A stretch of DNA of 64,000 nucleotides from a virus: positions 128,001-192,000 of IMG/VR virus record IMGVR_UViG_3300045988_162176; one strand, given 5' to 3'. The notes below the pieces were generated by a model. The model saw only the letters and a program-made list of their open reading frames with translations. It was not told where the DNA came from and searched no databases. Position numbers and translations under genes: made by a program. Position 1 is the first letter of the stretch. Each line of letters begins with the position of its first letter. Below, in pieces: positions 14,101-51,937 of the stretch.

Positions 14101-14577
14101 CTCCAAACCACTCAAATCCACCCAAATAACAGAAGTGGTAGAACCAACCGTAAATCCAGAGCATACTTGTGTAATTGGTAGTTCATCTTTTTCTCTCGGG
14201 GAATGATTTTCGTACATTCTAATATTCCACTAATAATTTTTACCGTTTTTAAATTCTTGCCCCTTTTCTGTGATACAGGTTAAACTACTTTCTTTTTTAC
14301 TAACTTCTTTAAAAGTAATTATATCATTTTTCCGACTACCACTCGATGAAACCTTTGCGTTTAATGTTAACTATTCTTTGTTTTGAACTTCGACCCCCAA
14401 ATTCTAAGAATTCCGAATTAAAATATCAGCAGCCCCATCCCGAGATATAATATTCACTGAATATGCCTTAACACTATTTCCAAGAGTGTTAGCCTACGCC
14501 TAAAATTTGTTTCCTTCGGCAGATAAAATATCAATTTCATTTAGGTTCGGCAAAAGCTGTGAAGGTTTATAAATCAT
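11125..14577 (-). CDS. Large tail / baseplate structural protein (~1150 aa)
   Basis: Nine track ORFs from 11446..12021 to 14032..14217 all have ends congruent mod 3. Pairs such as 12790..13017 and 13018..13245 abut with only a TAG between them. I walked the frame codon by codon from ATG 14575-14577 (AAAGGAG SD) to TAA 11125-11127 and found about 20 TAG and no TAA or TGA. Confidence 0.7.
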
Positions 14578-14713
14578 GTTTTTGTAACTCCTTTCCAATG
14601 TTTTTTAAGAGGTGAGGTGTGGCGAGTTTTATTCCACACCACACCCCTTTATCAATTTTAATTTTAAACTATTTTTACTTAATTGTCAACAACTTTCTCA
14701 AACAATTTTTAAT

Positions 14714-15775: not shown

Positions 15776-16996
15776 CATAATTAAAATTATGGCGGCAAGG
15801 CATTTCTACCTTGCTCTCGTGTTTCATTTTTAGATTATAGCACGAGTCCAGACTGTATATTATATTATTTAATAATATTATTTAAATAATACGATAGCTG
15901 AACTCAATATGTTACCATATTAAGTGTGACAGTCGTTCGAGTTTCTGTTAAAATTATTAAAAAAATCATCCAAGATTTCAGTAAGCCTTTTCTTATCCTT
16001 GTAAGAAATTTCTAAGAGACAAATTCCTTTTTGCTAACAATATTCTTTCTTTATTTTATCCCTCTTTTGTCCATCTTCAAATCTTTTTGCAGCTTTCTAT
16101 TTAGATTCTTCTGTAGGAGTGTAAGAAAAATCTACTGGTTTATAATGTTGTTCTCCCTAATATTCTATACATACATTATAGTCTGACAAATAAAAATCAA
16201 ACGGAAGAAGCTATTTATATCTACAATCATCAAAACGTTTCTATGGAGTAAAATTTACATTGTGGTCTTCTAAGTAAGTATAAATAATACTTTCTCCGAT
16301 AGACAATTTACAAAAATGACATCCTGTTTGTAAAGTTACAAATTTATCTGCTTTTGTAGTAGTTAGTCTTCCACAAACTTTGCAGCGACAAGTTACATCT
16401 TCTTTTATACCATTATATTCTCCAACTACTTCCAAGGAAGGGTTAATTTTTGTTAACTTTTCTTCATACCATTTTTTATCTTTAATAAAACGTTCCCTCA
16501 ATTTTCTTTTCTTGCATTCTGGACAACCTTCTCCTCTTTTTATTTTATTTGGTCTTGCAGAAAAAATGTGCCGATATTTACAAACAAATTCTGTTTTTTC
16601 GGTATCGTTCTTATATTTACCATAAAGTTTAATTTCTTTATCAGCAATATCTTCTATAAAATCTTCTTCTGTATAACATTTTAATCTGCATCCACAACTT
16701 TTAGCATGTAAAAAAGCATACGCATAAGAAATTCTATCAGGTTTATTTGGATGATTTAAACAATGAAAAATTACAAGTTGCTAATTTTTATCGTTTCTTT
16801 TTGTACCAACAATTTCAACATCTAAAAATTTAGCTTGTTCTAAATATTTATCTGTTAATTCCCATTCAAAATTATTCTCTTCCATTTTATCCTCCTTTCT
16901 TTAATAATATATAATAATTTTAACAGTCTTACTTCGGTCTCGACCTTCTCAGGCTATTAACCGATATAGCTATCTTTTACGAGGGCATTGGTGTTC
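15776..16996 (-). mobile_element. Group I intron carrying a homing-endonuclease ORF (distinct subtype)
   Basis: 1,221 nt. The upstream exon ends ..CGU GAG GGU and the intron ends ..AUUAUG. R-like UCGAACGACUGUCAC pairs with S-like AUAUACAGUCUGG, giving P7 GACUGU/ACAGUC. The ORF sits between the 5' and 3' core halves, and its last codons overlap the R element. Confidence 0.6.
15920..16885 (-). CDS. Intron-encoded homing endonuclease, Zn-ribbon + PD-(D/E)XK-like (FDFYL..IEYxGEQHY)
   Basis: ATG 16883-16885 follows a GGAGGA SD. Track ORF 16241..16501 is its middle piece. There are six in-frame TAGs. Motifs include CPECKKRK, CRCKVCG..CHFCK and LLPFDFYLSDYNVCIEY[TAG]GEQHYKPVDF. TAA stop at 15920-15922. 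Confidence 0.6.
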
Positions 16997-19900
16997 ACCC
17001 TCACGGTATACTCTCTCTTTTTCTTTAGCGGCATTCTTTTTCGCGGCAAGCAAATCTTCAAGCTGTATCTAACGTTCAAGCTCATCATTAATATCCTCAA
17101 GAGGTTTAACTTCTTTTTCATAAGCCTCTTCAATAGCATCTATATCTTTTTGCAGTTCATCTTTATAAAGATTAACTCTATAAACAATGGCATCATATTG
17201 CTTCTCTTGAAGTTCAATTAAATCTTTTTGCTAGTCTATTTTAGCTTCTTGAATAGATACAATAGCATTATTTAAACCATTAACAAGCTCTTTTATTTGC
17301 TCATCAGTATATCTGGAGGTATCACTCAAAGCCTATTTATATGTTTCCACTTGCTTTTGCAATAAATCTATCTTACTATTATAATAATTATTGATATCAT
17401 CAGATTTTATCCATTCTTTTGGAGCAGATTTTTCTAAAGTACTTAATTTATCTTCAAGTTCCTCAATCTAATCTTTAAATTTCTCAAAAATAAGTTCTTC
17501 TTTTTTCTAAATAAGGCTAAACAAACTTGATATACTATCTCGATAAGCCTGAGAATAATCATTGTTTCCTTGAGGAGCAAAAGCCTAAGCTTCAGTTAAA
17601 GACATACCATCTTTCATATATGCTTCAACTGCCTTATTAAAATTATATTCAATAGATTCCTTTGTAGCTTCAATTTGTTTTTCAATTGCTTCAATAGAAG
17701 AATTTAAAACAGAATCATACAAAGATTCATTGGTATAAGCAGTGCCTTTAACATACTGCATCTGAATATCATTTAACTCTAATTGCCATTCAGCTACTTT
17801 TTTACGTAAATCAATTTCATCTTGAATTAAACTATTAAGTTCTTTTTGACGTTCAAGTTTTTCTTCATAGGTATCAGCAGTTTTCAAGTGAGCTTTTTTT
17901 ATTTCTATTAATGCTTGGATAGATGCTCCATATAATTCAAGAATCTTATAATTATCTTCAACTTCTTCATCATCAAGATTATTAATAGCTTTTTGATTCT
18001 CAATGTAGTTCTTTTCTGCATCTAATCTCTCTTCTTCAGTGAGATTGGCATTTTGCATTAAACCTTCATAATATCCAGCTAATTTTTCGAGGCTTGCTCT
18101 CTTCTTTTCAAAATACGCCGTGTATCCAGTAGGTTGTAAAGTATTTTCATCAAATACTTTCATTGCTTCCCATTCTTTGTCAATAAGAGAATCATAAGCT
18201 TTGAGAAGGTCAAGAATTCCATCTTTAGCATCTTTTGCAGATTTGCCCAAATCTTTCATCGGGTTTCTATAAGCTTTTTTCCAACTGTCTTGTGTCAATT
18301 TTCCAGAATCGAGGATATCCTAAATCTTATAACCTAAATGTTCCCATGTAGCAATTTCGCCTTCGTCAAAATGTAATTGTCCATCTTCTCCAATATGAGT
18401 TTTACCAGTCCATTTCCGACTTTTTGCATCATAAGTCATACCACCAGATAACTTATCAATTTGCTCCTGCAAGGTATTCATTTTTTCTATTCTTTGTTCT
18501 TCATTAAGAGTAATTGTCTTGGTTTCAACTTTTCCCTCATATTTTTTAGCTTTCTAATTACCAAATTTAACTTTGCTTTTAGCTTCTTTATATTGTTCAG
18601 GAGTAATTTCTCCCATTTTTGCTTGATTATAAAGAGCCCACATCCGAGCAACATATTCAAGATTATTAGCTTGATTAATTAAAGCATCGCTTTCTTTTTG
18701 CAAAGCATCAATTTTTAGATTTGCAGAAGTAACCGTTGCATCAGCCACTTCTTGATAAGTATTACCAGCCGCTAATTGTGCATATTGATTTTGAAGAGAA
18801 GCTAAAGTATTTTTCTTTTCGGCAATCGTTGCCTATATACTAGCCTAAACAGCAAGTAGTCTTGCCCTTGCCATTGTCTCCTCAGCATCAGATTTTAATT
18901 TGATAGAATCTCCCTCAAAATCTAAAACATTAATATAATCTTCATTCGCTGCTAAAAGGTCTAAAGTAGTTTCTAAACTCAAATGACCAGAAGCATTTTG
19001 TTCTTCTCTAGCAGAAGACAACTAATCGAAAATTTCATCAACACTCTCTAAAGCCTCTTTTAATTCAGAAAAAGTGTTAATAATACCATCTTCACCAAAA
19101 TCCATTCCAGCAAAAAGATTTTCAAGGTCATATGACACAGATTTTATATCATAGTTTAAATGGTCTTTTATAGGGGCAAGATTAAGTTCTTCTTTTACGC
19201 CATTATTAATAGCCTCATTAAAATGCTTTCCAAAATAAGTTCCTGCTTCCTCAAAATCTAATTGCATAGCATCATCTATTATTTTTTGAGAATTTAGGAC
19301 GGAATTCCAAGTCTCTTCGTCATAGTCAGAAAAAGTTTCTGCAATAGCAGCCTTGTTATCAAACCTAGCCCCACTTCGCCACATCTAAGCCGCTTTACGA
19401 TAAAGAGCAGTATTCCCATTTTCATCTAACGAATCACGTTCAGTCATTCGTTGTGACGCCTATTGTCTTAAATAGGAATCTTTACCAGAATAATACTCAC
19501 CATTAACCATATTCATCATGGCTTGAGGATTATTAATAATATTACTACCCATCCAACCATTTTGAGCAAGACTAAACGCTCTCTTATATTGGTCTTGAGT
19601 CATTCCATTTACAGCATTGGCGAATTCTTCGGAAACCATTTTTGTTATGGTGTTAGAATCGAGTCCCATAGCTTCCAACAACTCATCCAAAGGAGTAGAA
19701 ACATGAACGGATTCAACGCCCTTAAATTCAGCATCAATCTTATAACCCATGCTTATAAGCATAGTTTTACCATCAGCAGAAAGCTCTCCATTTTCATCCA
19801 TAAGAGCCTCTACCAATTCTTTTCTATACTTTTCTTTCCACTCAGCAGATTCACCAACAGTTTTAAACTCCCCAGTACCATAGTAAACATCTACTATTGC

Positions 19901-22570
19901 TGGATTGTTTTTAACTATTTCTGTCATTTCTTGAGAAATAGATAAAATCTGAGTTTTAAAATCATCCATGTCAGTATAATCAATATCTTCTCCACGAATC
20001 TTTACCATGGCATTAATAAATGTTTGTTCATCTTCATCCATAGCTTTAATTGTAGAACTAAGTCCAGAGAATTTATATCCAACATCAACTATACCATCAG
20101 CAGTTGCCGCATAATCAATTAAAGCATCTGTATATTCCAGTATGTCTTGTTTAGAGTCATGCACTACTTTTTGATATGCTTCTTGTTCTTTCTTTAACTC
20201 TTGCAATTCTGAGTAGGCTTTCTCATACTCTTCTGTTCCTTTAGTTAAAGAATTAACATAGTCTTCTTGTTCTTTTACTTTGGTATTTAACCCTTTTGTT
20301 GTAGCATCAAAACCAGTGCCGGTAATTGTCGTTTCATCACCTAATTTACCCCCTGCTTTGGAAATATTTTTAACCGCATCATCCCATTGTTGACCAAAAA
20401 CACTTAAATCAGAATCAGTAGGATTTAACCATTGATGAACCCAATTAAAGAACCCTCCACCATTATCAAAGAATTTCGCAGTTGCAGTCTCTTTTAAAGA
20501 TTGTACCATTTTATCAACCGCTTCTGTTACTTCTCCAACTTTGCCAGCAAGCCCATCAGGACCAACTAATTTATTTCCATATTCATCTGTACGAACAACT
20601 AACTCAGGGAAAGCTTCTGCTAATTTATTAGACAAATCTAAAAATTGTTGATATTCTTCGCTTGTAAGAGAAATATTATTACCTAAGTAATCTACTCCTT
20701 TGGCAAGTTTATCATATTCAACAGTATTGGCAGAAGAAGACAAAGCATTGCTATAAGCTTCAGAAGCTTCATTATAAGCTTCCTGTAAATTTTTCTTAGA
20801 ATTTTCAATGCCCTGTGCAATTCCTGCAACTACTGCTGCACCAACCATTATTCCTAACCCAGCTAAAGAAGAAGGCTTTATTGTAGTTGTAAATTCTTTC
20901 CATGCGCCACTCAACCGCGCACTCAATTGCTCACTTGCTTCTCCACCTAACATTTTAGTGAGTTCTTTATTAAATAAAAACTTCTTTCTAGCTTTTACAA
21001 GAGCATTGCCAAACTCGTCTCCAAATTTAGAAAGGGTTTTACCACCAAGAGAACCTCCCAAAAGCATTCCAATTGTTTGTCCTCCTGTACCTCCAAGGTT
21101 TTTACCTATTGAAGACCCAATCCAAGTTCCTCCAAGCATACCAAGTAATCCACCAATACCAGAAGCAACCATTCCAACACCCGTTTGATTAGAAGACTAA
21201 CCAACATTAACACCCATCTAATTAAAAGTACGTCTATAATTAGGGTCGGCGTTTCTACCACTTAATGCTCCACGGGCAAAGAAATTTTTCTTCCGAGCGT
21301 CATATTCAGCTTCTCTTGCTCTATATTGCTCTTCTGTCATACCCATTTCTGCTATTGCTTTTCTCTTAGCTTGTTCGTATAATTCAGAAGCATTTTGCTC
21401 ATCTTTATACTAATCTTTCAAATTTCTTATGGCTACAACATCTTCATACCTTGCATTGTATTCTTCTTGTAAGACTTTTAAAGTTTCAGCTTTTAAACTG
21501 GAAATTAATTTAGTTTTTGTTGTATCATCTAACAATGCTACAGTTTCATCAGAAATATTACCATTTAATAACTCTTCGGCAATTCGTTTTCTATCAGTTG
21601 TTTCTTGGGCTAAGAAAGTGGATTGAATAATTTTATAAGTGGCTTTTTCTTCATCTGACAACGCCGCCGCTGCACGATTCAAAGCACTACTATAAACTTC
21701 TCCAGCAACACTATCCATGCTTGCAGAAGTTTCTGCCCACATTCTACTCCAAGCAGCTTTTGCATATTCTGCGTCAGCACTTTGATTGGCTGTGCCACTG
21801 AACACCTAACCCATATTACCTAAGAATCCAGCAACTTTTCCTGCTCCACCAACAACGCCAGACACAAGTGTTCCTTTTCCTACAATTCCAGCAGCAGCAA
21901 GTAAAGCAGCCCCAAATAATGTCAAATTGTCGGCTACAGCAGCCAAGCCATTATAAACAGTTTCAAGTACGCCACTACTATTAAGCATTAAAGCCCACTT
22001 TTCTAAGCTAGCAGTTAAACGCTTTTGAGCAGCTTCAACTCCACTTGTATAAGCTTCCATCTTCTTAGCAGCAGTACCAGCAGATTCAGCAGCAATCTTT
22101 TCATACTTAGCTACCAAATCCATGTTCTCCATAAGGATTAAGAAGTTTTCACGCTGTCTCGTACCAGCCACAGCAGTAGCAATACCAGACTTTTGAACAT
22201 CACTAAAGGATGTCCATTTTTCAGAAATATCATCAATGATATCATCAACATCTCTGAAATTATCAATAGAATCTCTAACACTAATACCAACAGCTTTTAA
22301 TACCTGTTCAATTTCATTCAGGTTAGAGAAATCTTCTTGGGATAACCCCTCTTGTTCAGCTTCCTCTTGGGAAACTTCAAATTTTGTTGCGGCAATTTTT
22401 TGGAATCTTGAGTACAATGTCTTGAAGCTCTCACCAACAGTTTCAGGTGTCTTCTGAGAAACTTCCGAAACTGTCGTAATCATTGCCATGTATCTATCCA
22501 AACTGGAACCCGCCAATTGCGCTGAGACGTTCGCACGACTCATTGCAGCAGCTAAGTCACCAGCACTAAT
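16997..22570 (-). CDS. Giant tape-measure-like virion protein, exon 2 (1858 codons)
   Basis: Track ORFs 21806..22543, 21410..21805, 19460..21172, 19022..19384, 18554..18748 and 17585..18298 share one frame and are separated only by TAG. The segment contains the second half of a TP901-type TMP domain (ISAGDLAAAMSRANVSAQLAG..) and Gly-rich hydrophobic stretches (GIGGLLGMLGGTWIGSSIG..). Confidence 0.7.
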
Positions 22571-22895
22571 CTGTTATGTTTAAATGATTCGCTAAATCAT
22601 TCGAGAAAATTCTCCTCATACTTTCATATGAGCACTGACTATATCTTCACCCTTATTATAAGGGGCGTACTTTTTCGGAAAATCAATCGCTTATTTCCCT
22701 ACTCCTTTTTAGGATAGTCGATGGACATTATTCTATTCAAATCTTCGCTGCTGATTATCTAATCTTTATATTTTTTTAGCATTCACATTTAAGTTTATTT
22801 CATCTTTATGTTGTAGCATATAAAGCTCTAAAGATTTCCCAGCAATTAAATACGTTTTCACTCACATATTACTATGTTTGCGACCTATTTTATTA
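22571..22895 (-). ncRNA. Group I intron (ORF-less) in the tape-measure domain
   Basis: 325 nt. Minus-strand elements are P TTAATTGCTGGGAAATC, Q AATCAGCAGCGAAG, R TCCATCGACTATCC and S AAGATATAGTCAG. The exon ends GCU and the intron ends ..AACAG. Splicing gives ..LTAVDMAAA|ISAGDLAAAMSRAN.., restoring a continuous TMP motif and accounting for the frame change (325 mod 3 = 1). Confidence 0.75.
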
Positions 22896-25800
22896 AGCCG
22901 CCGCCATATCAACCGCAGTTAATTTATCAACAACTTCTCCCACTTCATCAACAGAAAGTTTCCAACCTTTAAGAACAGAAATTAAATATTCCGTAGCTTT
23001 GGCGGAATCAATCATACCAAGAACGCTAAGATTCATGGAATTTTCAACAAGCTGAGAAGCTTCTTGTCCTTCGTAACCAGCACGAAGCCAATCGTTAGCT
23101 GCCGTGGCAACTTCTTCTGTACTCTTACCAACTTTACGAGCTAATGTATTAAAATCAAGCATCATGCTTTGAATCTCTTTATAGCTGTAACCACTTGCAA
23201 TCTGCAAGTCAACCATTACTGCATTAAGAGACTTAGCACTATTCATGATTTGATTAAACATATTTCTAACAGTCATTGCCAATTGATTAGCAATAACATC
23301 AATACTTACTAATCTTGCAAAACTGTTAGTAAACGTCTTTCCTATAGTTTCAAGAACACCTTTTTGCTCTCTATAAGTAGCATTAATTTTAGTAAGCTTA
23401 ACTTGATGTTGAGCTTGCAAATTAGCTTCCTGTTGTTCGAGCTTATTAATGGCTTCTTGACTATAGCCCATTTCTTTAAGTTCTTTAACTCTTTCTGCAT
23501 ATACAGTACCCTATTGCTTTAACAAATTCAATTGTTCACTTAAAGCGGTACGAATATTTTCCTGCTCAAGTTTTTCATATCCTGAAGAATTACTGACTTT
23601 TAAATCTGTTCTTTGAATCTCTTCTTGCAACTTCATCTGTTGCTTAAGATTATTAAGATAATCCTTAATATCTTTATTACCTTGAGAATTTTGGAAACCT
23701 GTATTCCTGTTCATTCTATCAGTAATAAATTGAGGTCTATTATTTAATTTTTCACCATTCTGATAGTAACCAGTGGTAGCAAATTGAGATTCAGCAAGAA
23801 TTTTATCCTGTTGAATACCTTGTCCTTTAGAGCCTCTTTCAAGACCTTCGGCAACAGTTGCCATAGAAGCAGCTTTACCCTTAGTTGTTTCAACAAAAGA
23901 TTGACCATCCTTTGTAAAGCTTCTAATAATTTGCACGAAAGAACGAGCAAAAGCTTCAACACGAGCTTCACCATCTTCAATAATAGCAGAAATATCTCCC
24001 GCCCCAGAGTCTTTATCAAAGCCTTCGAATCCGAGTTCAGCAACTCTTGTCTTCAAATCACTTGATAAACTATCAAAAGATTTACCTTCAGATTGAGCTT
24101 GCTTTAATTTTTCAACAACCTGACTGTATTCAGATTCAGCCATCCTAAGATAAGTACTTGCTTGTAAAACACGAGCGGCACGCATCCGTGGGTCATCTTC
24201 TCCACCACTGTTAGAGAATTTCCAGTCTGCAACAGTTACATCTGCGTATTTACCATTAACTTTTTGACCAAAAGTCAAAGCATCCGCAGTACCAGCAAAA
24301 GCACGATTACCAATAACTCCACCAAGCTTAAGCTCTTTGAGTGTGGAACTATTTAACGCACCAGATGTTCTTGCAGCATTAACAACATCACGGGCTCTAC
24401 CCTGTTGGCGTTGCAAATCTTCCGCTGTTACAGATAAACCAGCGCCTCCAAGTTGAGGCGATTTTCTAACTTCATCTATTAATTGCTCCATTAACTCATC
24501 AGTCATATTGTCGATGTTTTCAACAATAGCATGAGCAAATGTACCCAACGCAGAAGCTTTATTACCAGATTGAGTAGTATTCGGGAATTTACTGTAATCT
24601 TCATAAGGCGCAGTTGTCACTTGAGTAACAGACCTAAGATTTCCGCCCTCAGAAGAATAAGTCTTATCACCGACCTTCATAGTTCTGGAATGACCTTCAC
24701 CAAGTTCACTCACAACATCAGCCGCAATAAATTTAGCCCATTCGCCACTTGCGTCTTTCAAATTAGCCGCTTTATCAATAGAATTAGTCTGAGAAGCTGT
24801 TTGATTTGCTTGAGCAACAGGAGCATTTGCTTTTACTTCAGTAGCACCATTTACATCAATGTTACCAGTATTAACAATAACTTTACCATTCTGAGCATTA
24901 ACAACAACATTACCCTTAGCATTAATAACAGAACCTTCAACAGTTTCTTCTGTGCCATCTTCAGAAACTCTTACCCATTCGCCATTGTCATTAAGATAAG
25001 TCTTATCTTTTCTTAATTCACCATTAAAGGTGCGATAAGGGTCTAATGCTTTAGAATAATTAGTGGCGTCCTTAAGAGAAAGACCCATTGGTTTAAGATA
25101 AGCTTCAAAACTATTAAACGCTTCAATAAGATTTTCCATGGTCGCGCCCTTAAAGGATGCAAATTTACCATTCTCATCAACGGTAGCAATTCCCATCTTT
25201 GTAAGAGCATCAATCTAAGCTTTATCTCCACTTGCAATTATTTGAGAAGCAACAGTTTCAAACTGCTTACCGTCCATTATACTGCCAAGAACATTAAGGT
25301 CTTTAGCAATACTTAAGAAGCCCTTTTGGTCATCAGTATCAGCAAAACGTCCTTCATGAATTGCACTAACCAAATCTTTAACAGCTAATAAAGCTTGGTC
25401 TTCACTCATTCCTTCTTTGCCGATTAATCTTGCGTAAATCTTTTTAGAAGAAATCGCATCCTGTTCAAAAGATTCCATGGTGGCTCTAATAATAGCAGAT
25501 TGCACAGCAGAAGTTGCACCATTATTGTCGGCAAACCCTGTTTTGTACATAGCTTCTCTTGCTTTAGTGTCAGCATCAGAGAACAATCCGACGTTTTGGA
25601 ATGCCATTTTAGCCTGTTCAGATGCATCTTTATTTATCCATTTCTTAGATAAATTTTTAGCAATCGTATTCCAGCTATCATCTATATCGACTTTTTTATT
25701 TTGAGCTTTTTGCTTTTGAATCTGATTCATAATACTTGCAACAGTATCATTGTATTTTAAGATATAATCCTCTGCAAGTTTTTCATCTTCACCATATTGT

Positions 25801-28800
25801 TCATATACCTTAAGAGCCATGCGGAATTTATCACCGTCAAAGTCTCCTCGGAACAATTCAGCCAAACCAGCACTAACTCTAATTGTATCGCCAGCAGATT
25901 CGTCCAAACCAAGTCTTGCAGTATATCCTTCCATACCTTGAGTATAAGGATAACGACCCACTTCTGTAGTAAAAGTGTTATTGCCGCTCTTTATCTCACC
26001 AATAATAGCGCCAATAATTTCTTCTTCAAATTGATTTATTTCATCTTCCGAAAGTTTATTGGTAAACTTTCCATCTTCAAACCGAGGTCTTAAAGACATC
26101 GAAGTAATAACTCTTTGTCCACTCTCTTTAATAGATTTTGCTCTTAAAGTAGAAAAGAGTCTGTTAATATTTTCAAGCCTGTCTTGTTTAGTAGCGGAAG
26201 ATGTACTGCTCATTAATTCTCTTAAACGCTTAGAAGAAATATAAACCGTATTAGCTTGTTCATCTGTTAAATCAGCCAACTTAGAAGTACCCGCCGCAAC
26301 AGAGAAAGCAGAATAAGGTACATAATTATGAGTAGCTTGTTTTACCAACTCGGAATCTTTTGTATTGCCAAGTTTATGATAAACATCAGCCGCATATTGC
26401 TTTGCTTTCTCAAAAGCTTCTTGGGATTCTGTAGCAGCTTGCAGTAATGCAGAGTTAGCACTATCAATAGCGCCAGAATAATATTCTCCATCAGGAGACA
26501 TTGCTGCACCAGCATCTCCAAGCAAATATTTCTTTCCACCAATGGCAGAATCAGAAAGATTTAATACAATATTACCACGAGCATAAGCTTCACCTTCAGA
26601 CCCTTCTAAAGCAGAAAGTTCTTTTTGAAGTTGACGTGCTCTTTCCATAGCGAAGTTTTGGTATTCCTCCGCACTTATCTTACCAGAATGTCTTAAAGCA
26701 TTGATGTCAGTAAGAATATCAGAATAAACCTAATCACCAGCTTGAAGAACTACTTGACCATCTTGAACTCTAAATTCAACATCTTTTGTTCCTTTGGCAG
26801 TGGTATAATCTGTAACATTATTAAGAGATTTGTTAGCTGCAATTAAATTCTTGCGAACTTTTTGAGCCTCCAAACCTTTTTTGCCATATGTATTATCTTG
26901 TTTTTCTTGTTGAGCTTTTAAGCTCTTCAAACCAGCAATAACTTTTTCTCTATCTTTAAGATTACTTTGACCAGCAGCAGATTTAGTAATATAATCTAAA
27001 CTTCTTTGTCTTGCATTTCTTACTTTCCAGTCATCAGTAACACGTCCATCTCTTTCAAGTGTATTTGCACTACCATAACCAGAAGCATTAGAATAAGGAT
27101 AAATATTGTGCTGTCCAATGCCAAGAGAAGCTAATCCTTTAATAGAATCATATATTGCCTATGCTTCAAAAGCACTCTTACCAATCCGTTTAAAGATTGC
27201 CAATGCAGATTGTTCGATTCCCTTAAAAGAAGCTAACGTTTCCTCTGGATTAGCAAAAACATCTTCGCCTCGCTTGTTTGTAACAACACCATTTTTCTCA
27301 TCGGTAATATCAACAAGTAATTTCTTTTCTTCTCCATTCTCTCCCGTTACAGTTTGAATTTCAAACATCTTCTAAAGGAGAGGAGGTAAATTACTATAAA
27401 TGTTTTCAAGAGAAGAGCCTTGTTCCAAAGCCTTATCAATAATGGTGTTTATTTGACCCATGAACTCAGAATAATAATTACGTTCTTTTACATCATCATT
27501 CAGCAAAGTCAAATAATCAGCATCAGCAATAGCATTCTTACCTCTTGCAGCCCAAAACTGTTTAACAAAATCAGCTTTACTTACTCCATGTTGTTTTTCT
27601 GCATCAGCAGTTAAACGTCTACCACCTTCATCAACAAGCTTTACACCTTGTTCAACTTGTCTAAGTCTGTCAACCAGTAATTTCCAACCGTTATCAGTTT
27701 TCTCAAGACCAACCAGTAAATCCCCCTCATTTACAGAGAAATCTTTAGAGAACATCTTAAACTGGTCTTTGCCAACTGTTTGATTAATATCAATAACTGA
27801 ACCAGTTTGATAATCGCCAGAAGCAAGACTATCAATATCTACACCAAACTGATTTAAGAAATCTAAAACAATATCTTCAGTATTGGTAGCCTTAGACACA
27901 TTCCTTTGAATACTTTCAGTTTCAGCAATAATCTTGTCTGTAACTAAAGCAACATCGGTCATATCTTTCAACATAGAATCTATTCTATGTGTATAATCTT
28001 TATCGCTTTCACCAGCCATTTGAGGATTGAAAGATTGATAGTACGCTCTTTCAGCTTCATCAAATTCTTTTTGAGTTAAACCATAACTCTTATATCTCTT
28101 ATGTGTGATATCTGTTCTATCAATACCAGCATCCAAAGCTTGCTGAGTAGTAGTAACAACTTGACTCATGGCATCAGAAGATGCTTCTCTACTTGCAAGA
28201 GCTTTTTCAGATAATCTTAAAGTATCAAAAGCCTGAGATAAACTTCTTTGAGTTGCGTCTATACCTTGACCAAAAGGAACATATTGTCTTGAAGATACGG
28301 TGTAATTTTTACCAAGAGCAAATTTACCCTCGGATTCACCAGTATAATCGCTTGGCATCGCCGCACCAATTTCTTTAGCCGCTTTTCTATAATATTTAAA
28401 AGCATCACTGGTCATAATGAATTTAACCAGTTCATCAGCTATAGTATCTGGGTCTAAATTTTCTTTCATAGCCAACGCCCAAGCATTAGCCATAGCGTCA
28501 GTTAATTCTTTACTTGGGTCAAAAGCATTGTAATTTGCTTTATACCCTTCGTTATTTCCTGTAAAATAGCCACTTAATGCCTCTTTAACATCTTTTTGAT
28601 TAAGAGTAGACTGAATTTCTCTAGCGATACTATATTGAGTAGAACGCATAGCTTCTAATTCGGTTAATTTACCAGAATAGCGAGTATTAGAATCTTGAAT
28701 GTCTTCTCTTGCTTCAGAACCCATCGTAACAGAAGATACTTTGTTAATAGCTCTGTTTGCCCCTGATTGCAAACGACGAGAAATTTGGTCGGAAGAATAT

Positions 28801-30302
28801 TTAGTAAAATCTGTATTTCTTAAAATAGAAGTCGCATCTTTAACCTGTAAAGTTTCTGCCGTTTCCATTACTTTGACACCCTTTACTTCAGGAGTGCCAT
28901 CTTCTTTCAATTTTCCAGTGGGGATAAATTCTGTTGCAACTTCAGCTTGATTGATTCTACCACCAGCAATTCTACCAGTTTCATCACCAACTGCAAAAGA
29001 TACTTTTATATTATTCTCTTTTTTCCAATCTGTTGATTTGTATTCTTTATCTAAAGGAATAAGCATAGCCTGAATTTCAGAACCATTTCTTCTAAAATAA
29101 ACAGAATAACCTTTCTTTTCTGCTTCTTCAACAAATGTTGCTAAGGCATCACGAGTAGTACCATATCCCTTATTACCGCCACCCGTAATATTAGATACAT
29201 CTTGTCCAGCTCTACTTTTTTGTCTGTTCCTATATTCAGCACCAGTTAATGAAGCTTTCGCTCCTTCGTTAAAGCCATTAATTAAAGCATCTAAACTCTT
29301 ATAGACTTCAACAGAATGACCTTGAATATTTTCTTTGTCAGAAGCAAAAGTACCACCAAAAGATTCAATTTGCTATTTTGACAAAGCTCCAGAAATTCCA
29401 CCAGAATTTTTAGCAATTAAATTAAAACTGCTTCTGTATTTTTCTGCCTCTTTTTTAGCTGTTTCTTCAGTAACATTCCTCTAAGTTTGAATAGATTTGG
29501 AAAGCTAATTAATTATAGCCTCCACTCCATCAAAAGTATCAAAATCTTTAGAAGAAATAGCTTTTACAAAATCAGCTTTAACCGCACTATTAACCATTGT
29601 TTTTGGAGTTGTTGGCATTTTAACTGTTTTGCTTTTTGTGGCTTTTGCAACAGTTGGCTTTTTTGTTCCTATGTTGGTAATCCCCTAATTCAAAGACAAA
29701 CCAACATCTACAGCCATTTTTTGAACAGCAGTAGCTAATTTGGCTTCTTCTTTAGAAGTATCAATAGGCGTAAAACCAGATTTCTTTTCTTGAAGTCTTT
29801 TTACTCTATATATAAGCTCTTGACCTCTTTCTTGTGCCTTTTGTGTCAAAGCTTGATAAATAAATTCATAAGCTTTCCTTTGCTCGTCTACACTTCCTTG
29901 AAAATTTTCAGCTTGTTTTATCATATCAATAGCCATATCAGCTTGCTAATTGATATAATCAATACCCTGTTGTTCTAACTATTGATTCTTAGCATCATTT
30001 ACAGCTATTTTCTTTTTGTTCTTGTTGTTTTGCCCTTGTCTACTAGCTTTTAAAGTCTCCGTAGACTTTTTCATATTAGAAATTTGTTGCTCTCTTTGAG
30101 CATTCAACATATCAATAACATCGTTAGTTTGAGTGCCATTATTAATTAGACGCTTAGTAGCTTCTTGGGCTTTCTTTGTATCTATAGCCTAACCAGTACT
30201 CTTACCTTTTTCATCCAAGCCATAAGTTTTTTTTATATCCGAATATGCTTTAGCTTGAATATCTTCTATTCTCTATTCTAAACTTTTCAGTAAATCTTCC
30301 AT
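22896..30302 (-). CDS. Giant tape-measure-like virion protein, exon 1 (2469 codons; includes DFDGD polymerase-like segment)
   Basis: ATG 30300-30302 follows a GGAGGA SD. Track ORFs 29685..29936, 27372..29066, 27159..27368, 26730..26930, 25215..26648, 23511..25196 and 22893..23471 all have ends congruent mod 3. The gaps contain only TAG. Confidence 0.7.
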
Positions 30303-30315
30303 GTATTATTCCTCC

Positions 30316-30966
30316 TTATTTTAATTGAATTCCATATTTTTTATAAATCATTGGCTTCAATTCAACCAAATACTATTTTTCATATTCTTGTTGAGCTCTA
30401 AAACGAGCTACTCTATAGGTTTCATCTATAGAAGGTAACGTACTTAAATCTATTCCTTGATTAATTGGATTAAAATTGTAATAATCCAATCTAACATCTG
30501 CAAGCACATCTTCTTGAGAATCTTCGTCCATTTTACCACCTGATGATAAAAAATCCTAATCGTCATCCTAAAAAAACTAATCAATAAATAATCCAGCAGC
30601 TTCGTCTTCACTTCTGAAATTCTTTACCGTGGATTCTGATACTGTATTTGGATTAAATTTTTTCTTTTCCCTATAGTTCTTATTGCTAAATTTGAACTTT
30701 GCCGTATTGTAGGTGCAATAAGGTGTAGCATCGCTATTTTGTCCAAAATACAAAGAAGACATTAAAGAATCTTCGTCATATAAATCTCCATAATAGTTAT
30801 CAAATACACTTTTAAACACACTTTTATATATTGCTGTATAACTATTTAACAATTCAATTTTAATTGCCATCACTCTACTTGGCAACATCTTTTTAGTTGC
30901 ATCTACAGTTTCTTTTATTTCTTTTTTTAATGCATTTGAAACTGCATTTGGTAACACTTGTTCCAT
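30316..30966 (-). CDS. Hypothetical protein upstream of the giant gene (tail chaperone candidate)
   Basis: Track ORF 30577..30966 ends in TAG and the frame continues through four TAGs to TAA 30316-30318 (..AAGLFID[TAG]FF[TAG]DDD[TAG]DFLSSGGK..ETYRVARFRAQQEYEK[TAG]YLVELK..). An AGGAGG SD is present. Confidence 0.45.
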
Positions 30967-31035
30967 ATATTAACCTCCTTATTTTATTTTAAAAGCTGCA
31001 CCAAAAAATGATGCAGCTTTATATTTCTTTTTATA

Positions 31036-31767: not shown

Positions 31768-33267
31768 TTAATCCTTTTCCTTCTTTATTGGAAATTTACT
31801 TTTATTTTTAGGCTGTGATGGGTCATAACCTAAAATCGAATAATCTATTTCTTCTCCATTTTCGAGAAGATTTTTCAGCTATATTAAATCTGTCTAGGAC
31901 AAATCTCGCATCGGAATTATTTTGTAGCGATTTTGGAAAATACGATAATCTGAAAAAACAGAGGGATTATATTTTTCCCGCATTACTTTCTTCGCTAATT
32001 CTGACCTACTATGCCAACTCCACAAATACTATTCCTAAATTAAATCGTATAAGACAATAGGCACTTCTGGTACTGCACAACTTGCACAAGGTTGTCCATG
32101 ATTTATTTCAAAAAAGACGTTTTCCTTGCCATCTACATAGTAATAAAAGAATAAAGTTATTGGACACTTTGGCTCAAGTCTTTCTTTCTTCTCATATGAC
32201 CATAAATGATTTAATCGGTACAAGCTGTTATTTTTTATAGCTTCGTTTATAGTAGAAGTTTCTACCCCATATTCAACTGCTACAGCTCTATGATTTTCCC
32301 ATTCTCTCTAATATTCTCCATTTAAGGAGTATTGATAAACAGGAGGCAAATCCTTATCCTTTTTTACTACTGGATAATCAAAGAAAGTAATATCTTTTGT
32401 AAGATGTTTCCAATTTCTTTTGTTCTTTATATCATGAATGGCAGCTTTGTCCACCCCATATTTTTTAGCAAGAAGAGGAATAGAAGTCCCTATTTTTAAT
32501 TCTTCAATAATTTCTTTTACCTGAACTAAAGTTAATTTCGAAGAAGTACTATTTTCTCCTCTTGAGGATGTATCTCTTTCTTTTATATCACATTTTTCTC
32601 TAATTTTACTAAGCATGTACCGTTTATAAAAACGTAACGTTGTTCCCTTTTTTACCCCAACTTTGGCATCTATATCAATACAGCGCATTGGAGTGTTTAA
32701 TAATTCAATTATTTCTTTTAGCTATTCTACTGTAATATTAGTACGTTTTTCTAAAGTGTTCCATGTTACATCATTAAATCCTCCGTGGGCATGGTCAGCT
32801 TGATTAAAACCTGTATTTTTTCCTCTAGCCCCCAAAGTGTCAATATAATACTGCTCTCTTTTTTCAATATAAGATTTATTTTCGGCTATGCTTATTTCTG
32901 GTTGCCATTTATAAAATTCAATAATCTAAAAATCAAAATTGTTTAATCCATGCTTATTATAACAACGTTGCAAATGTGAATTAAAATGAATTCCTTTTTT
33001 TAAATCGTTTAAATGACGTTTTAGCCTTCTAATTAACCGACCATTGCTTCCAGTTGACCCAACGTATATTCTATTATCAGTCAAATCTGTAATTTTATAT
33101 ACCCCTTTAGCTTCTCTGTATATCTTAGCTAATTGTCTTGTTTCATCCTTTTTAGAAACAGAAGTAAAATCTTCTCTGATTATTTTATTCAAATGTTTGT
33201 TTAGTTCATTTAAATCATAATCTTCAAAATATTCTAAATCGTATTTAATTGAATTACTATTATCCAT
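31768..33267 (-). CDS. Free-standing GIY-YIG homing endonuclease with NUMOD1-like HTH repeats (~499 aa)
   Basis: Track ORFs 32926..33267, 32308..32688 and 32035..32223 share one frame joined by seven TAGs. The N-terminal part has GVYKITDLTDNRIYVGSTG..R..H..FDF[TAG]IIEF..EQYYIDTLG. The HTH-like parts are LLAKKYGVDKAAIHDIKN and AVAVEYGVETSTINEAIKN. TAA stop at 31768-31770. Confidence 0.7.
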
Positions 33268-33288
33268 CGTTTCAAATCTCCTTTATTT

Positions 33289-35501: not shown

Positions 35502-36812
35502 TTAAACATAATAGAACTTGATATCACTAAGTCCTTTATCATAATCAAAAACAAAAGCAATGCATCCAGCATCAGCCATAGTATATCCACTCTTTGTAGT
35601 CCAATTATCCATCTTTGTCATGGCGGAAAGAGTGAAAACAGAAACACCATAATTTTCTCTTAAAGCCCAATCATTATGATGCAAATGACCACAAAGCCAA
35701 TAATGATAAGAAGTCTGTCCCCAATCTTCCTTAGCTTCAGTCTGCATTAGACCATTAATGCGGTCTTTTTCATCACTACCATGAGTCAAACCCAAAAGTG
35801 TCTTGCCAACTCTAATATACTTTCTTGGGAACGGACTTGCATCAACCTTAACTTCTTCTACATTTCTATAATATGCTTCAATTATCTGCATTAACGCAAG
35901 TTCTTCAAATCTAGAGTGATTACCTGAAACAAATACAACCTCTACCTGTGCAACCCTACTAAGCATATCTATAACTTCAATCAAAGCTTCTATGCCTTTT
36001 TTGAAGATAGTATTAAAAGTTCCTTCGTTATCCTGCATGTGAGATTGACTTGTTGTGTAACCAGTAAAACTACTGTTAAGATAATCGTTACCAACCATAT
36101 AAATAATCTTTCCCACATTATTCCAATGTATAGAATCTATCATCTTCTTAGTGGTAGAAAGCATATTCTGTCTTGCAATTTCCATATTATACTCAACTCC
36201 TGTTTCATAGGGCTGAGAAATTCTACCAAAATGTACATCAAGATGACTGAAGAAAACTACATTGGGCTTGTTACTAATATCTCCTCTAATATGTTCTGTC
36301 TTACGAGGAGATTTAAAACCTTCAAAATATTTTCTTAGCTCTTCTAAATCTAAGCCACAATCGGTAGGCTTTACAGTAATACGAGAAGAATAAAGATTCT
36401 TCAAACCACCTTTGCCATCACCTTGTTGCCAAATACTATTTTTAGCATTAAGCAATTCAAACTGAACTGGATTATACCCGTGTGCTTTTAAAAGAGCTGT
36501 TTTATCCGTAAGCTCATCTTCTGACAAAGCTACGAATTTTTCACTTGTTCTCACACCGTTACTATCTAAAGTAGTAGTATTCTTAGTAGGAATGTTTTTA
36601 TTAACAGGTTCGTTAACCCATCCTGAAGCATTAAATTCAGAATAAAGCAACGCACCTCTACGAATTGTATCAATAGTCAAAGAAGGCAAACCATATTTTT
36701 TACGAATATCGTTTGCATTACTCCAAGTTGCGTCACCATTTGAAATATCCATCATTAATTGACGCATTTCACGAAGATAACCTTCGGGTACTTTATCTGT
36801 AACTAAAGCCAT
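35502..36812 (-). CDS. Calcineurin-like metallophosphoesterase domain protein
   Basis: 436-aa track ORF with the motif series LDVHFG, GNDYLN, GNHSRFEE and GHLHHND. AAGGAG SD, no TAG. Confidence 0.55.
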   Translation of the reverse strand: MALVTDKVPEGYLREMRQLMMDISNGDATWSNANDIRKKYGLPSLTIDTIRRGALLYSEFNASGWVNEPVNKNIPTKNTTTLDSNGVRTSEKFVALSEDELTDKTALLKAHGYNPVQFELLNAKNSIWQQGDGKGGLKNLYSSRITVKPTDCGLDLEELRKYFEGFKSPRKTEHIRGDISNKPNVVFFSHLDVHFGRISQPYETGVEYNMEIARQNMLSTTKKMIDSIHWNNVGKIIYMVGNDYLNSSFTGYTTSQSHMQDNEGTFNTIFKKGIEALIEVIDMLSRVAQVEVVFVSGNHSRFEELALMQIIEAYYRNVEEVKVDASPFPRKYIRVGKTLLGLTHGSDEKDRINGLMQTEAKEDWGQTSYHYWLCGHLHHNDWALRENYGVSVFTLSAMTKMDNWTTKSGYTMADAGCIAFVFDYDKGLSDIKFYYV

Positions 36813-36823
36813 TTTAAATCTCC

Positions 36824-37480
36824 TTAATTAAGAATCTGTGAAATGTCATCAACAATATGGTCAACCAAAGAATACTGCAACTATTGAGCGTCATCCAAAT
36901 ACCAATCAGTCTTAAGCTTCTTAGTTAAGGTAGACTTAGAAATAGTAGTGTTTTCTATAATATTATTATGAACTCTGGAAATCAAATTTTTATATTGTTG
37001 ATTTTGCTGCTGAACTGCATTAAAATCACCCCGTTGCATAGCACTGCCAGAATGCAGGAGTGCCGTAGAGTTCTTTAAACAATATCTATGACCTTTATGA
37101 CCATTAATAAGAATCATGGCACCGCAACTCATTGCACAAGCAAGATTAACCGTAACAATAGGAGTCTTAGAAAGTTTCATAACAGACAAAAAGCCCATCG
37201 CTGAATACAAATCTCCTCCGTAACTATGCACGTATATAAATATCTTCTTACGGTCTTCAACAGGAATATCTTTATCAGCATCTTCTTTGTTCCAGCGAAT
37301 AATTTGCTGCATTTCTTGAAACAAAGTTTCGTCGATGTCCTTGGTTATCCACAGTTCCCTATTTTTAAGTGACCTATATTTCTAAACTAAAATAGGGTCT
37401 GGAAGTTGTAAATTAGCTTCTGGACCAAGTTCTTCTAAACAAAACAAATCATCTAAAGTATCATTCTTAATTTTATCCAT
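36824..37480 (-). CDS. ClpP-like serine protease
   Basis: Track ORF 36881..37324 extends upstream through a TAG (37382-37384) to ATG 37478-37480. It also extends downstream through its terminal TAG to TAA 36824-36826. Motifs include VHSYGGDLYSAMG and LACAMSCGAMIL. The extension ..DDAQ[TAG]LQYSLVDHIVDD restores the ClpP-type C-terminal helix. Confidence 0.65.
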
Positions 37481-37559: not shown

Positions 37560-37995
37560 CAAAAGGTTAATTACTCCCTGTCCTGTTCTTCTTTGTTGCA
37601 TAAAACGCTAAAACTAAACTCTAACGTCTTAAGGAACTCCTTGTACACATGGTACATGAGATATGTGGCTCAGACCCGCTTTACGGACCCGTAAATTTGG
37701 TCTTCTTTAAGTCCTCATCCTATGCTCATGGACACCACATTAAAAAGCTACAAGACTATGCCTCGTAGCTGGCCTAAATATACAACATGGTATATAAGGT
37801 GATAAGGTTTATGCCGACACCTTAAAACGCCTTTCTCTTCCATTTGAAACCACGCATGAAAGTATGTTGGTTGGACAGTTTTAATTGCTACCCTGTGGAA
37901 ACCTGACAACCCTAATAAGCCTCCATTGCATCACTGGATGGTAGCCCAATATACAACTTCTCTGGCAACCCTGACCTCTTGTATCAATAGGTTTA
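37560..37995 (-). ncRNA. Candidate structured non-coding RNA(s), unclassified
   Basis: About 430 nt without ORFs between the MBL and ClpP-like genes, clearly GC-richer than its flanks. Minus-strand helices include GCUACC..GGUAGC, AAGGUG..CACCUU, AUAUAC..GUAUAU, UUUACGG..CCGUAAA, CAUGAG..CUCAUG and AGCUAC..GUAGCU followed by UUUUU. Coordinates are approximate. Confidence 0.45.
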
Positions 37996-38034: not shown

Positions 38035-39483
38035 TTACAATAAAATTTCTGTCGATTTGTTGGCTACAACAACCTTATCCGTCCTATTTCTTTTACTAAT
38101 AAGCTCCGACAAAGTTTTACTCAGTTCAACTCTGTCTTTCATATTACCATGCTGAAGAACAACTTTACCATAACCGCTAGTTCCAAACCCCCCACTGTAA
38201 TAATCGCAAAGTTCATCTCTTTGCATATGACTTGAAAAACTATTTAAATTAATTACTCTACAACGACTTGGAATTTGTTTACTATTAATAGCTACAGTCT
38301 TAGTCTTCTTTTGTTTAATCTTCCAAGCTAAAGAACCTTCAACAGAATAGCCAATAAACGCAATACCATTCTTGGCACTTGGAAGAAGTTTTTCAGCAAT
38401 ACCCACGGAAAAACCAGCATTTAACATTCCTGCGGAACTGATAAATATCACTGGGTCGGACTTTGCTAAAATTTCTTCTATTTCTTCATAATTACTAATA
38501 AATTTAACCTTGTCCCATGAAGAAGCTTCAATCCATCTCTTAAGTTGCTCGCCCTCTAAAATTTCATTAAAAATTTTATTAATTTTACAAGTTAAAGGAG
38601 AACCAACATAAACAGGAATATTAAAATTCTCATCATCTTTAAACATTTCGTAAAGAATAGTTAAAATTACTTGACTCCTCATTAAAGAGAAAGAAGGGAA
38701 AAGCAACTTTCCTTTTCCATCAATGCAAACATCATACACAAAAGCTTTAATCTTTTCTAAATCTTTTTCTCTATCTTTTGCTTTAGCACTTTTTTCTTTG
38801 CTGGCATAAGTAGATTCACCCACTAACAAATTTGCGTTTTGAATAGGTTCAAACTTATTTGCATAATAAGTTTCAGTTCTAATATTACCTAAATCACCAG
38901 TAAACGCTATTTTACGAGTAACGCTACCATTTTTGATATATAGAATCAATTGAGCAGCGCCGATAATATGTCCAGAAGGAATAAACTCAAATGTTACCTC
39001 ATCGTCTAATTTAATTCTTTGCTTAAAAGGATATTCTTCAATATGAGCAAGCATATCTTTTACATCAGACTCTTCATAAATTGGGGAATATTCCCTTTTA
39101 AGTTTTCGAGACAAATCTTCAACATCTCTTAACATAATCTTAGCACTATCTAATTGCAATTCTCGAATTAAATCTTTATTGCCATCAGGCACAATAATTT
39201 TTCCATCAAATCCTCTTTTGGTTAAAAGGCTTAAACGACCTGAATGGTCAACGTGCGAATGAGTCACAAATACATAATCTACATTCTTCTCTTTGAATGT
39301 AAATCTTGCACTATTAGCCTGATATTCTTTCAAAAGACTTTGATTACCTTGTACCAATCCACAATCGACAAGAATTGTTCGTTCTGGCTTTCCCCATGTA
39401 ATAACTGTACAAGAACCTGTTACATCTTCTGCTGCACCAGAATTTTTAAAACTTACTCTAATCTTGTCTTTGCTTTTACTCAT
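38035..39483 (-). CDS. Metallo-beta-lactamase / beta-CASP family nuclease (RNase J / CPSF-like)
   Basis: 482-aa track ORF with HSHVDHSG (the HxHxDH motif), later GDLGN and SSHMQRDEL-type motifs. No TAG. It is the first gene after tandem promoters. Confidence 0.65.
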   Translation of the reverse strand: MSKSKDKIRVSFKNSGAAEDVTGSCTVITWGKPERTILVDCGLVQGNQSLLKEYQANSARFTFKEKNVDYVFVTHSHVDHSGRLSLLTKRGFDGKIIVPDGNKDLIRELQLDSAKIMLRDVEDLSRKLKREYSPIYEESDVKDMLAHIEEYPFKQRIKLDDEVTFEFIPSGHIIGAAQLILYIKNGSVTRKIAFTGDLGNIRTETYYANKFEPIQNANLLVGESTYASKEKSAKAKDREKDLEKIKAFVYDVCIDGKGKLLFPSFSLMRSQVILTILYEMFKDDENFNIPVYVGSPLTCKINKIFNEILEGEQLKRWIEASSWDKVKFISNYEEIEEILAKSDPVIFISSAGMLNAGFSVGIAEKLLPSAKNGIAFIGYSVEGSLAWKIKQKKTKTVAINSKQIPSRCRVINLNSFSSHMQRDELCDYYSGGFGTSGYGKVVLQHGNMKDRVELSKTLSELISKRNRTDKVVVANKSTEILL

Positions 39484-39515
39484 ACTTTACCCCCTACGTT
39501 ATTATAGGAACTTAT

Positions 39516-51915: not shown

Positions 51916-51937
51916 TATTTTTCTTCCTCCTTTCTCC

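Follow-up and report, generated by a model that had tools for sequence, protein, structure and literature searches.

The fusion of a virion RNA polymerase (RNAP) to a tape measure protein has been proven experimentally for gp96 of Thermus phage P23-45 (Chaban et al., Nat Commun 2024, PMC10770324). This protein of 5,002 residues carries, within its N-terminal ~1,100 residues, a two-barrel RNAP with the motif DFDGD at residues 779-783 (PMC10770324), which transcribes the pre-early genes of the phage and is represented by the structures 8H2M and 8H2N (PMC10770324). In 2024 the link between polymerase and tape measure seen in gp96 was presented as an association that had not been suspected before (PMC10770324), and no further report of polymerase-tape measure fusions turned up in a literature search. 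Here, we describe a family with a comparable layout, represented by a giant gene in a 64,000-nucleotide stretch (positions 128,001 to 192,000) of the virus record IMGVR_UViG_3300045988_162176 from IMG/VR, which is referred to below, at its full length, as the window. We consider it probable that this gene, when TAG is taken as a sense codon and a group I intron is removed, encodes a tape measure protein of 4,342 residues headed by an RNAP-like module (residues ~330-1770) that contains a double-psi beta-barrel of the beta-prime type. The gene, the module and its motif are placed as follows, with coordinates of the window and residues of the spliced product.

22896..30302, minus strand: exon 1 of the giant gene, residues 1-2469, start codon ATG at 30302-30300, 13 in-frame TAG codons
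22571..22895, minus strand: group I intron inside the tape-measure domain, 325 nucleotides, Rfam RF00028
16949..22570, minus strand: exon 2 of the giant gene, residues 2470-4342 and the stop codon, 18 in-frame TAG codons
24996..29318, minus strand: conserved RNAP-like module, residues ~329-1769, extents from BLASTP against the homologues P0004, P0006, P0007, P0008, P0012 and P0013
25218..26729, minus strand: beta-prime-like segment, modelled, with the catalytic barrel, residues 1192-1695, from AlphaFold2 and Foldseek
25812..25958, minus strand: motif block, residues 1449-1497, consisting of R-Y-P, 34 residues and DFDGD
25830..25844, minus strand: DFDGD, putative Mg-binding Asp triad, residues 1487-1491

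A preliminary description of the window had drawn attention to the motif block as an RNAP-like signature. The minus strand from 25958 to 25812 translates as GRYPYTQGMEGYTARLGLDESAGDTIRVSAGLAELFRGDFDGDKFRMAL, an exact match to the segment flagged there, and the DFDGD motif had been placed correctly at 25830-25844, in full agreement with the minus-strand translation. The long reading frames of the window all lie on this strand and, under the standard code, the motif block falls inside an open stretch of 504 residues (25215-26729). In 2,000 shuffles of the ~20,900 translated residues, D[FY]DGD was expected 0.026 times per window proteome and the looser DxDGD 0.30 times. An occurrence of DFDGD by chance is thus unlikely, a point that is not decisive when taken alone. 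The arrangement of R1450-Y-P1452, 34 residues and DFDGD also satisfies the filter [RK]xPx{20,100}DxDxD of Chaban et al.

A word-indexed search for homologues returned one close relative only. An exhaustive search of 1.84 billion cluster representatives, with the TAG-free block 25218-26729 (residues 1192-1695) as query, returned 16 proteins, seven of which are 2,166-4,071 residues long and 27-36% identical to the query. The D-x-D-G-D motif was kept in 14 of the 14 homologues spanning the site (DFDGD in four, DYDGD in nine and DTDGD in one), the distant members of this set showing 23-36% identity. The preliminary description had set conservation of the Asp triad beforehand as a test of the polymerase reading, and the triad was found in every homologue in which the site could be compared. 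Over the whole module, full-length distant homologues were 21-25% identical to the window protein in alignment A1, which holds eight sequences and has 50 invariant columns, including those of R1450, P1452, D1487, D1489, G1490 and D1491. The family consensus, QxHRYPSTSGxD...RGxAxxxNADYDGDK, is close to the beta-prime signature NRxPxLH...NADFDGD. Homology was also seen to extend far beyond the motif, covering residues ~330-1770 and then running from ~1850 into the tape-measure domain (BLASTP).

With the single sequence, Pfam, PHROGs and a phmmer search against PDB gave no polymerase signal, and Pfam returned PF10145 only. When the A1 profile was compared with all PDB sequences, two matches were obtained at E<10, vaccinia Rpo147 (E 0.026) and phiKZ gp55 (E 2.6), and a narrower profile, A4, ranked the same two proteins first, with E-values of 0.013 for Rpo147 and 0.065 for gp55, which belongs to the non-virion RNAP (nvRNAP) of phiKZ. 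Both are RNAP catalytic subunits and both aligned in register at NADFDGD, the alignment with gp55 spanning the region from HRxP to NADFDGD. In addition, hhalign and a targeted local hidden Markov model (HMM) placed the motif on residues ~445-470 of E. coli beta-prime.

The structural comparison led to the same group of enzymes. An AlphaFold2 model of residues 1192-1695, built from a 14-sequence alignment, had a mean predicted local distance difference test (pLDDT) score of 63.7, and a Foldseek search with this model against PDB gave 144 matches at E<=1e-3. The best 50 of the 144 were all RNAP largest subunits, matched with probability 1.00 over ~270-330 aligned columns, and they included AR9 7s00_d (2e-5), phiKZ 8que_A, cyanobacterial gamma, archaeal A', Rpb1 and bacterial beta-prime. 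We take this uniform list as strong evidence, and homology of the segment 1192-1695 to the catalytic barrel of beta-prime is therefore regarded as established. The parallel to the RNAP beta-prime catalytic barrel drawn in the preliminary description is thereby upheld, by the profile matches in PDB as well as by the best 50 of the 144 structural matches; a profile or structure match to two-barrel polymerases, which it had named as a further test, was likewise obtained, with Rpo147, gp55 and the 144 Foldseek matches. A lytic transglycosylase with the double-psi beta-barrel fold, an enzyme common in tape measure proteins, was considered for the same segment and rejected, because all 50 of the listed structural matches are RNAP largest subunits.

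The carrier of this module had been described as a 'giant tape-measure-like protein', and it proved to be a real tape measure protein once the gene was reconstructed. Reading through TAG keeps the frame 30305-22893 open for 2,470 codons (7.4 kb), with 13 in-frame TAG codons and no TAA or TGA, and raises the total of long open reading frames (ORFs) on the minus strand from 3,891 to 9,075 residues; readthrough of TGA brought no gain. TAG was translated as glutamine throughout, and the relative P0002 (2,473 residues, 93-95% identical) has glutamine at all four TAG positions compared, within the first 130 residues. A second long frame, 16949-22573 (5.6 kb, otherwise free of TAA and TGA), begins with the remainder of the PF10145 domain that the first frame leaves incomplete. 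The sequence from 22571 to 22895 matched the group I intron family RF00028 with 57.7 bits (E 7e-14; gathering cut-off 50). A U.G pair in the P1 helix sets the 5' splice site after U22896, and G22571 is the last base of the intron. Joining of the exons yields ...KLTAVDMAAA followed across the junction by ISAGDLAAAMSR..., and the joined peptide aligned with the uninterrupted homologue P0007 without a gap at the junction (65% identity over 133 residues). The PF10145 score was 41.7 bits (profile positions 2-87) before joining and 96.8 bits (2-201 of 201; cut-off 33.2) after it. The score, the U.G pair at the 5' splice site, the terminal G and the restored frame are all as expected of a group I intron, and splicing in silico gives a single protein of 4,342 residues. 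The parts of this protein that lie beyond the RNAP-like module are listed below.

24123..24569, minus strand: PD-(D/E)XK (RecB/Cas4-like) nuclease domain, residues ~1912-2060, PF12705 at 25.5 bits with a cut-off of 22
22896..23147, minus strand: first part of PF10145, residues 2386-2469
22163..22570, minus strand: second part of PF10145, residues 2470-2605
21848..21949, minus strand: hydrophobic, Gly/Ala-rich, membrane-like segment, residues 2677-2710, Kyte-Doolittle
20804..20881, minus strand: second hydrophobic Gly/Ala-rich segment, residues 3033-3058, Kyte-Doolittle

From the N- to the C-terminus the protein is thus composed of a head (residues 1-330) that is poorly conserved and partly coiled, the RNAP-like module, the nuclease domain, PF10145, the two hydrophobic segments and a helical 'ruler' of ~1,300 residues. 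Its identity as a tape measure protein follows from the full PF10145 match, the annotated homologues, the hydrophobic segments and the alignment of its C-terminal 700 residues with residues 3367-4064 of the 4,071 in P0007. In a tblastn search with the tape-measure part, 64 phage records were matched, most of them annotated as tape measure and including Enterococcus and Bacillus phages. The same order of domains was found in two genes that need neither recoding nor splicing. P0007 is a single standard-code ORF of 4,071 residues with DYDGD, PDDEXK and PhageMin_Tail in this order, and the L002 ORF (2,378 residues, uninterrupted, standard code) shares the order of domains. Pfam also recognised the nuclease domain in P0007, P0004 and the L002 ORF, and nine sequences share the nuclease motifs GTFAH, GTAD (with D2007), DWK (with K2028) and QxxxY (QASTY in the window). 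Pfam detected neither a peptidase nor a lysozyme domain in the giant protein.

As to the site of the intron, P0001, a close relative, and P0004, a distant one (at profile position 84), also stop near the intron point of PF10145, and in P0007 and the L002 ORF the tape-measure domain runs on without interruption. A further intron containing an HNH ORF (15920-16900), which would have extended the giant gene, was considered and is rejected for now, because Rfam detected no intron RNA around the HNH gene and because P0007 ends at the same point.

A two-barrel polymerase calls for a partner barrel, for which the preliminary description had proposed a search upstream of the motif. The search brought up candidates at the level of motifs, and neither Foldseek nor profile, hhalign or HMM comparisons supported any of them. 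One candidate is placed as follows.

27594..27965, minus strand: candidate second barrel, unconfirmed, residues 780-903, beta-rich, pLDDT 73-84 in model 2

This segment has invariant D, G, K and R residues in 'GDxxxGxxKT...GSKLLxxxGGRxTAR'. The other motif-level candidate lies at residues ~1255-1285, and neither was backed by any program. Resemblances noticed by eye to the beta-subunit motifs 'EDSILVSE', 'GDILVGK', 'GDKMAGRHGNKG' and 'PSRM' are not claimed, since no program reproduced them. A strongly conserved helix, IRAFxESLEQDAISAKKVxARL, was seen at residues ~1604-1630 in A1 and in the model.

Several results weigh against the reading of the module as an RNAP at the head of a tape measure protein, and a number of them concern this second barrel. 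Model 2 (residues 311-976) was poor (pLDDT 54.5), and a Foldseek search with it against PDB and BFVD returned no RNAP, giving only two homologues from its own family. The sub-profile A5 gave no polymerase match in PDB; hhalign against E. coli RpoB, YonO, gp96 and gp64 placed nothing in register for a second barrel; and targeted HMMs of residues 780-930, 1040-1310 and 1235-1300 gave no second-barrel match. For the bridge helix and trigger loop, an HMM of residues 1555-1650 produced no in-register alignment with the bridge helix of beta-prime. The failure to locate a second barrel is in keeping with a remark in the literature that, outside the DxDxD region, little sequence is common to the two-barrel families (PMC10770324). 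For the catalytic barrel itself, sequence similarity to known RNAPs is confined to ~25-55 residues with marginal E-values, the two residues that precede the triad in the window phage are R-G, not N-A, and the TM-scores of the Foldseek matches are low (~0.2), as is expected from a model that is partial and of moderate confidence. To these points are added the translation of TAG as glutamine, which is an assumed assignment, and the search for a suppressor tRNA, in which no tRNA gene of any kind was found within the 64-kb window. Finally, catalysis by the fusion protein, its presence in the virion, its ejection and its role in early transcription are what we infer by analogy with gp96.

The likeness to gp96 of the Oshimavirus P23-45, a type further marked by a flat build lacking a clamp and by a metallopeptidase domain in the tape measure, is one of layout. 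In both cases a giant tape measure protein (5,002 residues in gp96, 4,342 here) has an N-terminal RNAP-type part with DFDGD ahead of the ruler, membrane-like segments within the ruler part, a single polypeptide and a siphovirus-type tail module. In contrast, the polymerase parts themselves could not be matched. When A1 was aligned by hhalign with residues 1-1200 of gp96, the probability was 0.2%, the alignment was out of register and the DFDGD motifs were left unpaired; the local HMM scored below 0 at gp96 residues 765-785; and 8H2M and 8H2N are absent from the best 50 of the 144 Foldseek matches. The triad lies at residue 1487 here and at 779 in gp96, and the module here comprises ~1,400 residues. 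A PD-(D/E)XK nuclease follows the module in the window protein, in which a metallopeptidase domain of the gp96 type was not found with Pfam, and the window phage further differs in its host lineage, its genome of ~214 kb, the recoding of TAG and the intron. The window family thus has a gp96-like layout with no sequence similarity to gp96 or YonO detectable by the comparisons made. The preliminary description had called the fusion of a polymerase to a tape-measure-type protein an unusual delivery solution. The fusion within one gene stands, whereas its novelty does not, because gp96 of P23-45 is an experimentally shown precedent (PMC10770324).

The closest matches of the module are the catalytic subunits of multisubunit RNAPs, such as those of the AR9 nvRNAP (7S00), phiKZ gp55 (7OGP and 8QUE) and Rpo147. 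These share with it the R-x-P box, the hydrophobic strand and N-A-D-[FY]-D-G-D, and they are its best matches both by profile and, among the best 50 of the 144, by structure. Unlike them, the window module forms a single chain with a tail protein, in which no beta-like partner was recognised, and outside ~55 residues the similarity is at the level of the fold only. The preliminary description had also pointed to the barrels of QDE-1, crAss-like phages and YonO, and had proposed a comparison with crAss-like phi14:2 gp66, QDE-1 and YonO. The closest matches are of the multisubunit beta-prime type; gp66 (6VR4) and QDE-1 are absent among the best 50 of the 144 Foldseek matches, and hhalign of A1 with YonO gave nothing in register. 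YonO of SPbeta has in common with the window family an SPbeta-like phage backbone and a DxDGD polymerase encoded in both phage groups, but it is a free two-barrel RNAP of 839 residues with DNDGD. With gp66 and the virion RNAP (vRNAP) of N4, the likeness lies in the concept of a packaged and injected polymerase that starts transcription, and gp66 is in addition a two-barrel enzyme within a giant protein. However, the crAss-like phages and N4 are podoviruses that lack a tape measure and eject the polymerase from the capsid, and the N4 vRNAP is T7-like, not two-barrel. Compared with canonical PF10145 tape measure proteins (PhageMin_Tail, or TIGR01760-type), the window protein has the full domain, the Gly-rich hydrophobic segments and the long helical C-terminus, and it differs in ~2,200 extra N-terminal residues with enzyme domains and in a domain split by an intron.

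The module could be a real two-barrel nucleotidyl transferase with a task other than the transcription of early genes, as a primer maker, a QDE-1-like enzyme acting on an RNA template or a motor that pulls DNA. Only the metal-binding barrel is established, the two-barrel enzymes include RNA-dependent polymerases and the DNA polymerase PolD (PMC10770324), and the adjoining PD-(D/E)XK nuclease suggests DNA processing. However, the best profile matches and the best 50 of the 144 Foldseek matches are beta-prime subunits of DNA-dependent RNAPs, not QDE-1 or PolD, and the sole characterised tape-measure fusion transcribes pre-early genes; we consider such another task unlikely. That the module is a catalytically dead RNAP relic, exapted to serve the tape measure as a plug or structural domain, seems very unlikely to us. 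In favour of a relic, the searches made could not demonstrate a second barrel, a bridge helix or a trigger loop, and RG stands in place of NA before the triad in the window phage. Against it, conservation covers ~1,400 residues on either side of and including the motif, and even the most divergent homologues keep the Asp triad, the glycine between the aspartates and the R-x-P box upstream unchanged, which is hard to explain without catalysis.

It is quite unlikely, in our view, that the RNAP-like part and the ruler end up as separate mature polypeptides, as would be the case if TAG were a stop or a regulated stop, if the intron were left unspliced or if a protease cut the product, so that the polymerase would be free and possibly non-virion. 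The 13 TAG codons of exon 1, the 18 of exon 2 and the intron speak for such a separation, as do the lack of a suppressor tRNA within the window, the ClpP-like protease gene directly upstream (30316-30969) and a public annotation made up of fragments, such as the 564-residue DAD56005.1. Against these points, TAA and TGA are absent from a frame of 7.4 kb and from the following one of 5.6 kb, the junction predicted for splicing is exact, and P0007 and the L002 ORF have the same order of domains in uninterrupted standard-code ORFs. The remaining alternative, by which DFDGD is a chance sequence or a calcium-binding acidic loop in a structural protein unrelated to polymerases, is hardly credible. 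DxDGD alone is expected at ~0.3 per window proteome, the single-sequence searches of PDB (by phmmer), Pfam and PHROGs were without a polymerase match, and the window has a second DYDGD, also conserved, in a small protein (41852-42859) that is unrelated. Nevertheless, the alternative is already contradicted by the conservation of the family, with its NADYDGD consensus and HRYPS box, by the RNAP subunits that top the profile matches and by the RNAP largest subunits that make up the best 50 of the 144 Foldseek matches.

On the preferred reading, of an RNAP-like module carried by a tape measure protein, the phage probably injects its own transcription enzyme together with a tail protein, as judged from gp96. 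By the same analogy, the giant protein would be assembled in the tail tube and, at infection, be ejected into the envelope of the host, where its hydrophobic tape-measure part would form or line a conduit for DNA. The tethered polymerase would transcribe the first-entering phage DNA independently of the host RNAP and may help to pull the genome in, and the nuclease, as a further predicted injected activity embedded in the same chain, would be delivered along with it. A more far-reaching proposal, which we put forward tentatively and regard as doubtful at present, is that the tape-measure-polymerase fusion arose here independently of gp96 and is convergent with it, a beta/beta-prime RNAP of the multisubunit lineage having been brought into one chain and joined, with a RecB/Cas4-like nuclease, to the tape measure of large SPbeta-like, TAG-recoded gut phages. 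If this were true, the injected protein would be a 'take-over cassette', transcribing the genome as it enters while its nuclease attacks host or competing DNA. The tether between polymerase and tape measure was known before from one Thermus phage genus, and the window family would be the second, unrelated to it in sequence as far as could be detected. Such a second family, present in phages of ~214 kb recovered from metagenomes, suggests that phages have repeatedly come to couple transcription to genome entry by way of the tape measure, and it offers a mesophilic system in which the idea of coupling can be tested.

The family has so far been annotated only as fragments called 'hypothetical protein'. 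The standard code and the unremoved intron break the gene into pieces, and the polymerase and its fusion have thus been hidden in the annotation. GenBank DAD56005.1 ('MAG TPA: hypothetical protein [Bacteriophage sp.]') is an exact standard-code fragment of 564 residues, corresponding to 27375-29066 on the minus strand of the window; it sits on a contig of 214,142 bp, with which the same or a near-identical phage is already public, and relatives are found on contigs of up to 218 kb. The same 564-residue fragment is BFVD A0A8D9UHY3 (98% identical), and a distant homologue in BFVD, from Siphoviridae sp. ctnpt50, carries the label 'Minor tail protein'. The relatives in IMG/VR lie on contigs of 104-217 kb.

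In the relative L008 the giant gene is flanked by genes for a YomU-type tube protein, a YonJ-like exonuclease, ClpP, beta-CASP and integrase-like proteins, and this neighbourhood is an SPbeta-like backbone. The portal of the window phage is closest to that of a record from human faeces and to those of 134-kb phages of Mammaliicoccus and Brevibacillus, and the nearest relatives in the databases were obtained from samples of human faeces. A tblastn search with the core against 50,697 GenBank phage records, P23-45 included, gave no match. A scan of genome contigs brought up only one of 3 kb, binned with a metagenome-assembled genome of uncultured Bacilli, which is too weak a basis for assigning a host; together with the portal matches, the L008 neighbourhood and the tape-measure homologues it suggests a host among the Bacillota.

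Immediately upstream of the giant gene lies a gene for a ClpP-like protein of the head maturation protease family (30316-30969, minus strand), which could process the fusion protein. Free-standing ORFs for homing endonucleases occur on both sides of the giant gene, one of the HNH type directly downstream (15920-16900, minus strand) and a GIY-YIG-like one upstream (31768-33282, minus strand). The use of TAG on the minus strand is very uneven, with 13 and 18 codons in the two exons of the giant gene and 22 in 11125-14604, among tail and virion-module genes, while the enzyme genes 38035-39486, 35502-36827 and 50008-51966 are free of TAG.

A second D[FY]DGD motif of the window, 'NILDYDGDKYID', is located in a zinc-ribbon protein of ~330 residues (41852-42859, minus strand) whose gene has seven in-frame TAG codons. 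This protein has more than 245 full-length homologues, with the motif kept in ~105 of the 120 listed, and no Pfam or PHROG family matched it. A reading of its DYDGD as the mark of a non-virion RNAP was rejected: the protein stands alone, bears a zinc ribbon, has homologues that match it over its full length and, at ~330 residues, is too small for a polymerase. The gene at 38035-39486 encodes a beta-CASP/metallo-beta-lactamase protein, the L008 homologue of which has a Pfam match to Anti-Pycsar_Apyc1, and downstream of it a match to the 'drum' RNA RF02958 was found at 37871-37967 on the minus strand (44.7 bits; gathering 43). Two more group I introns were detected at 41430-41741 and 48506-48865, both on the minus strand, with 57.5 and 60.1 bits respectively, above the Rfam gathering threshold.

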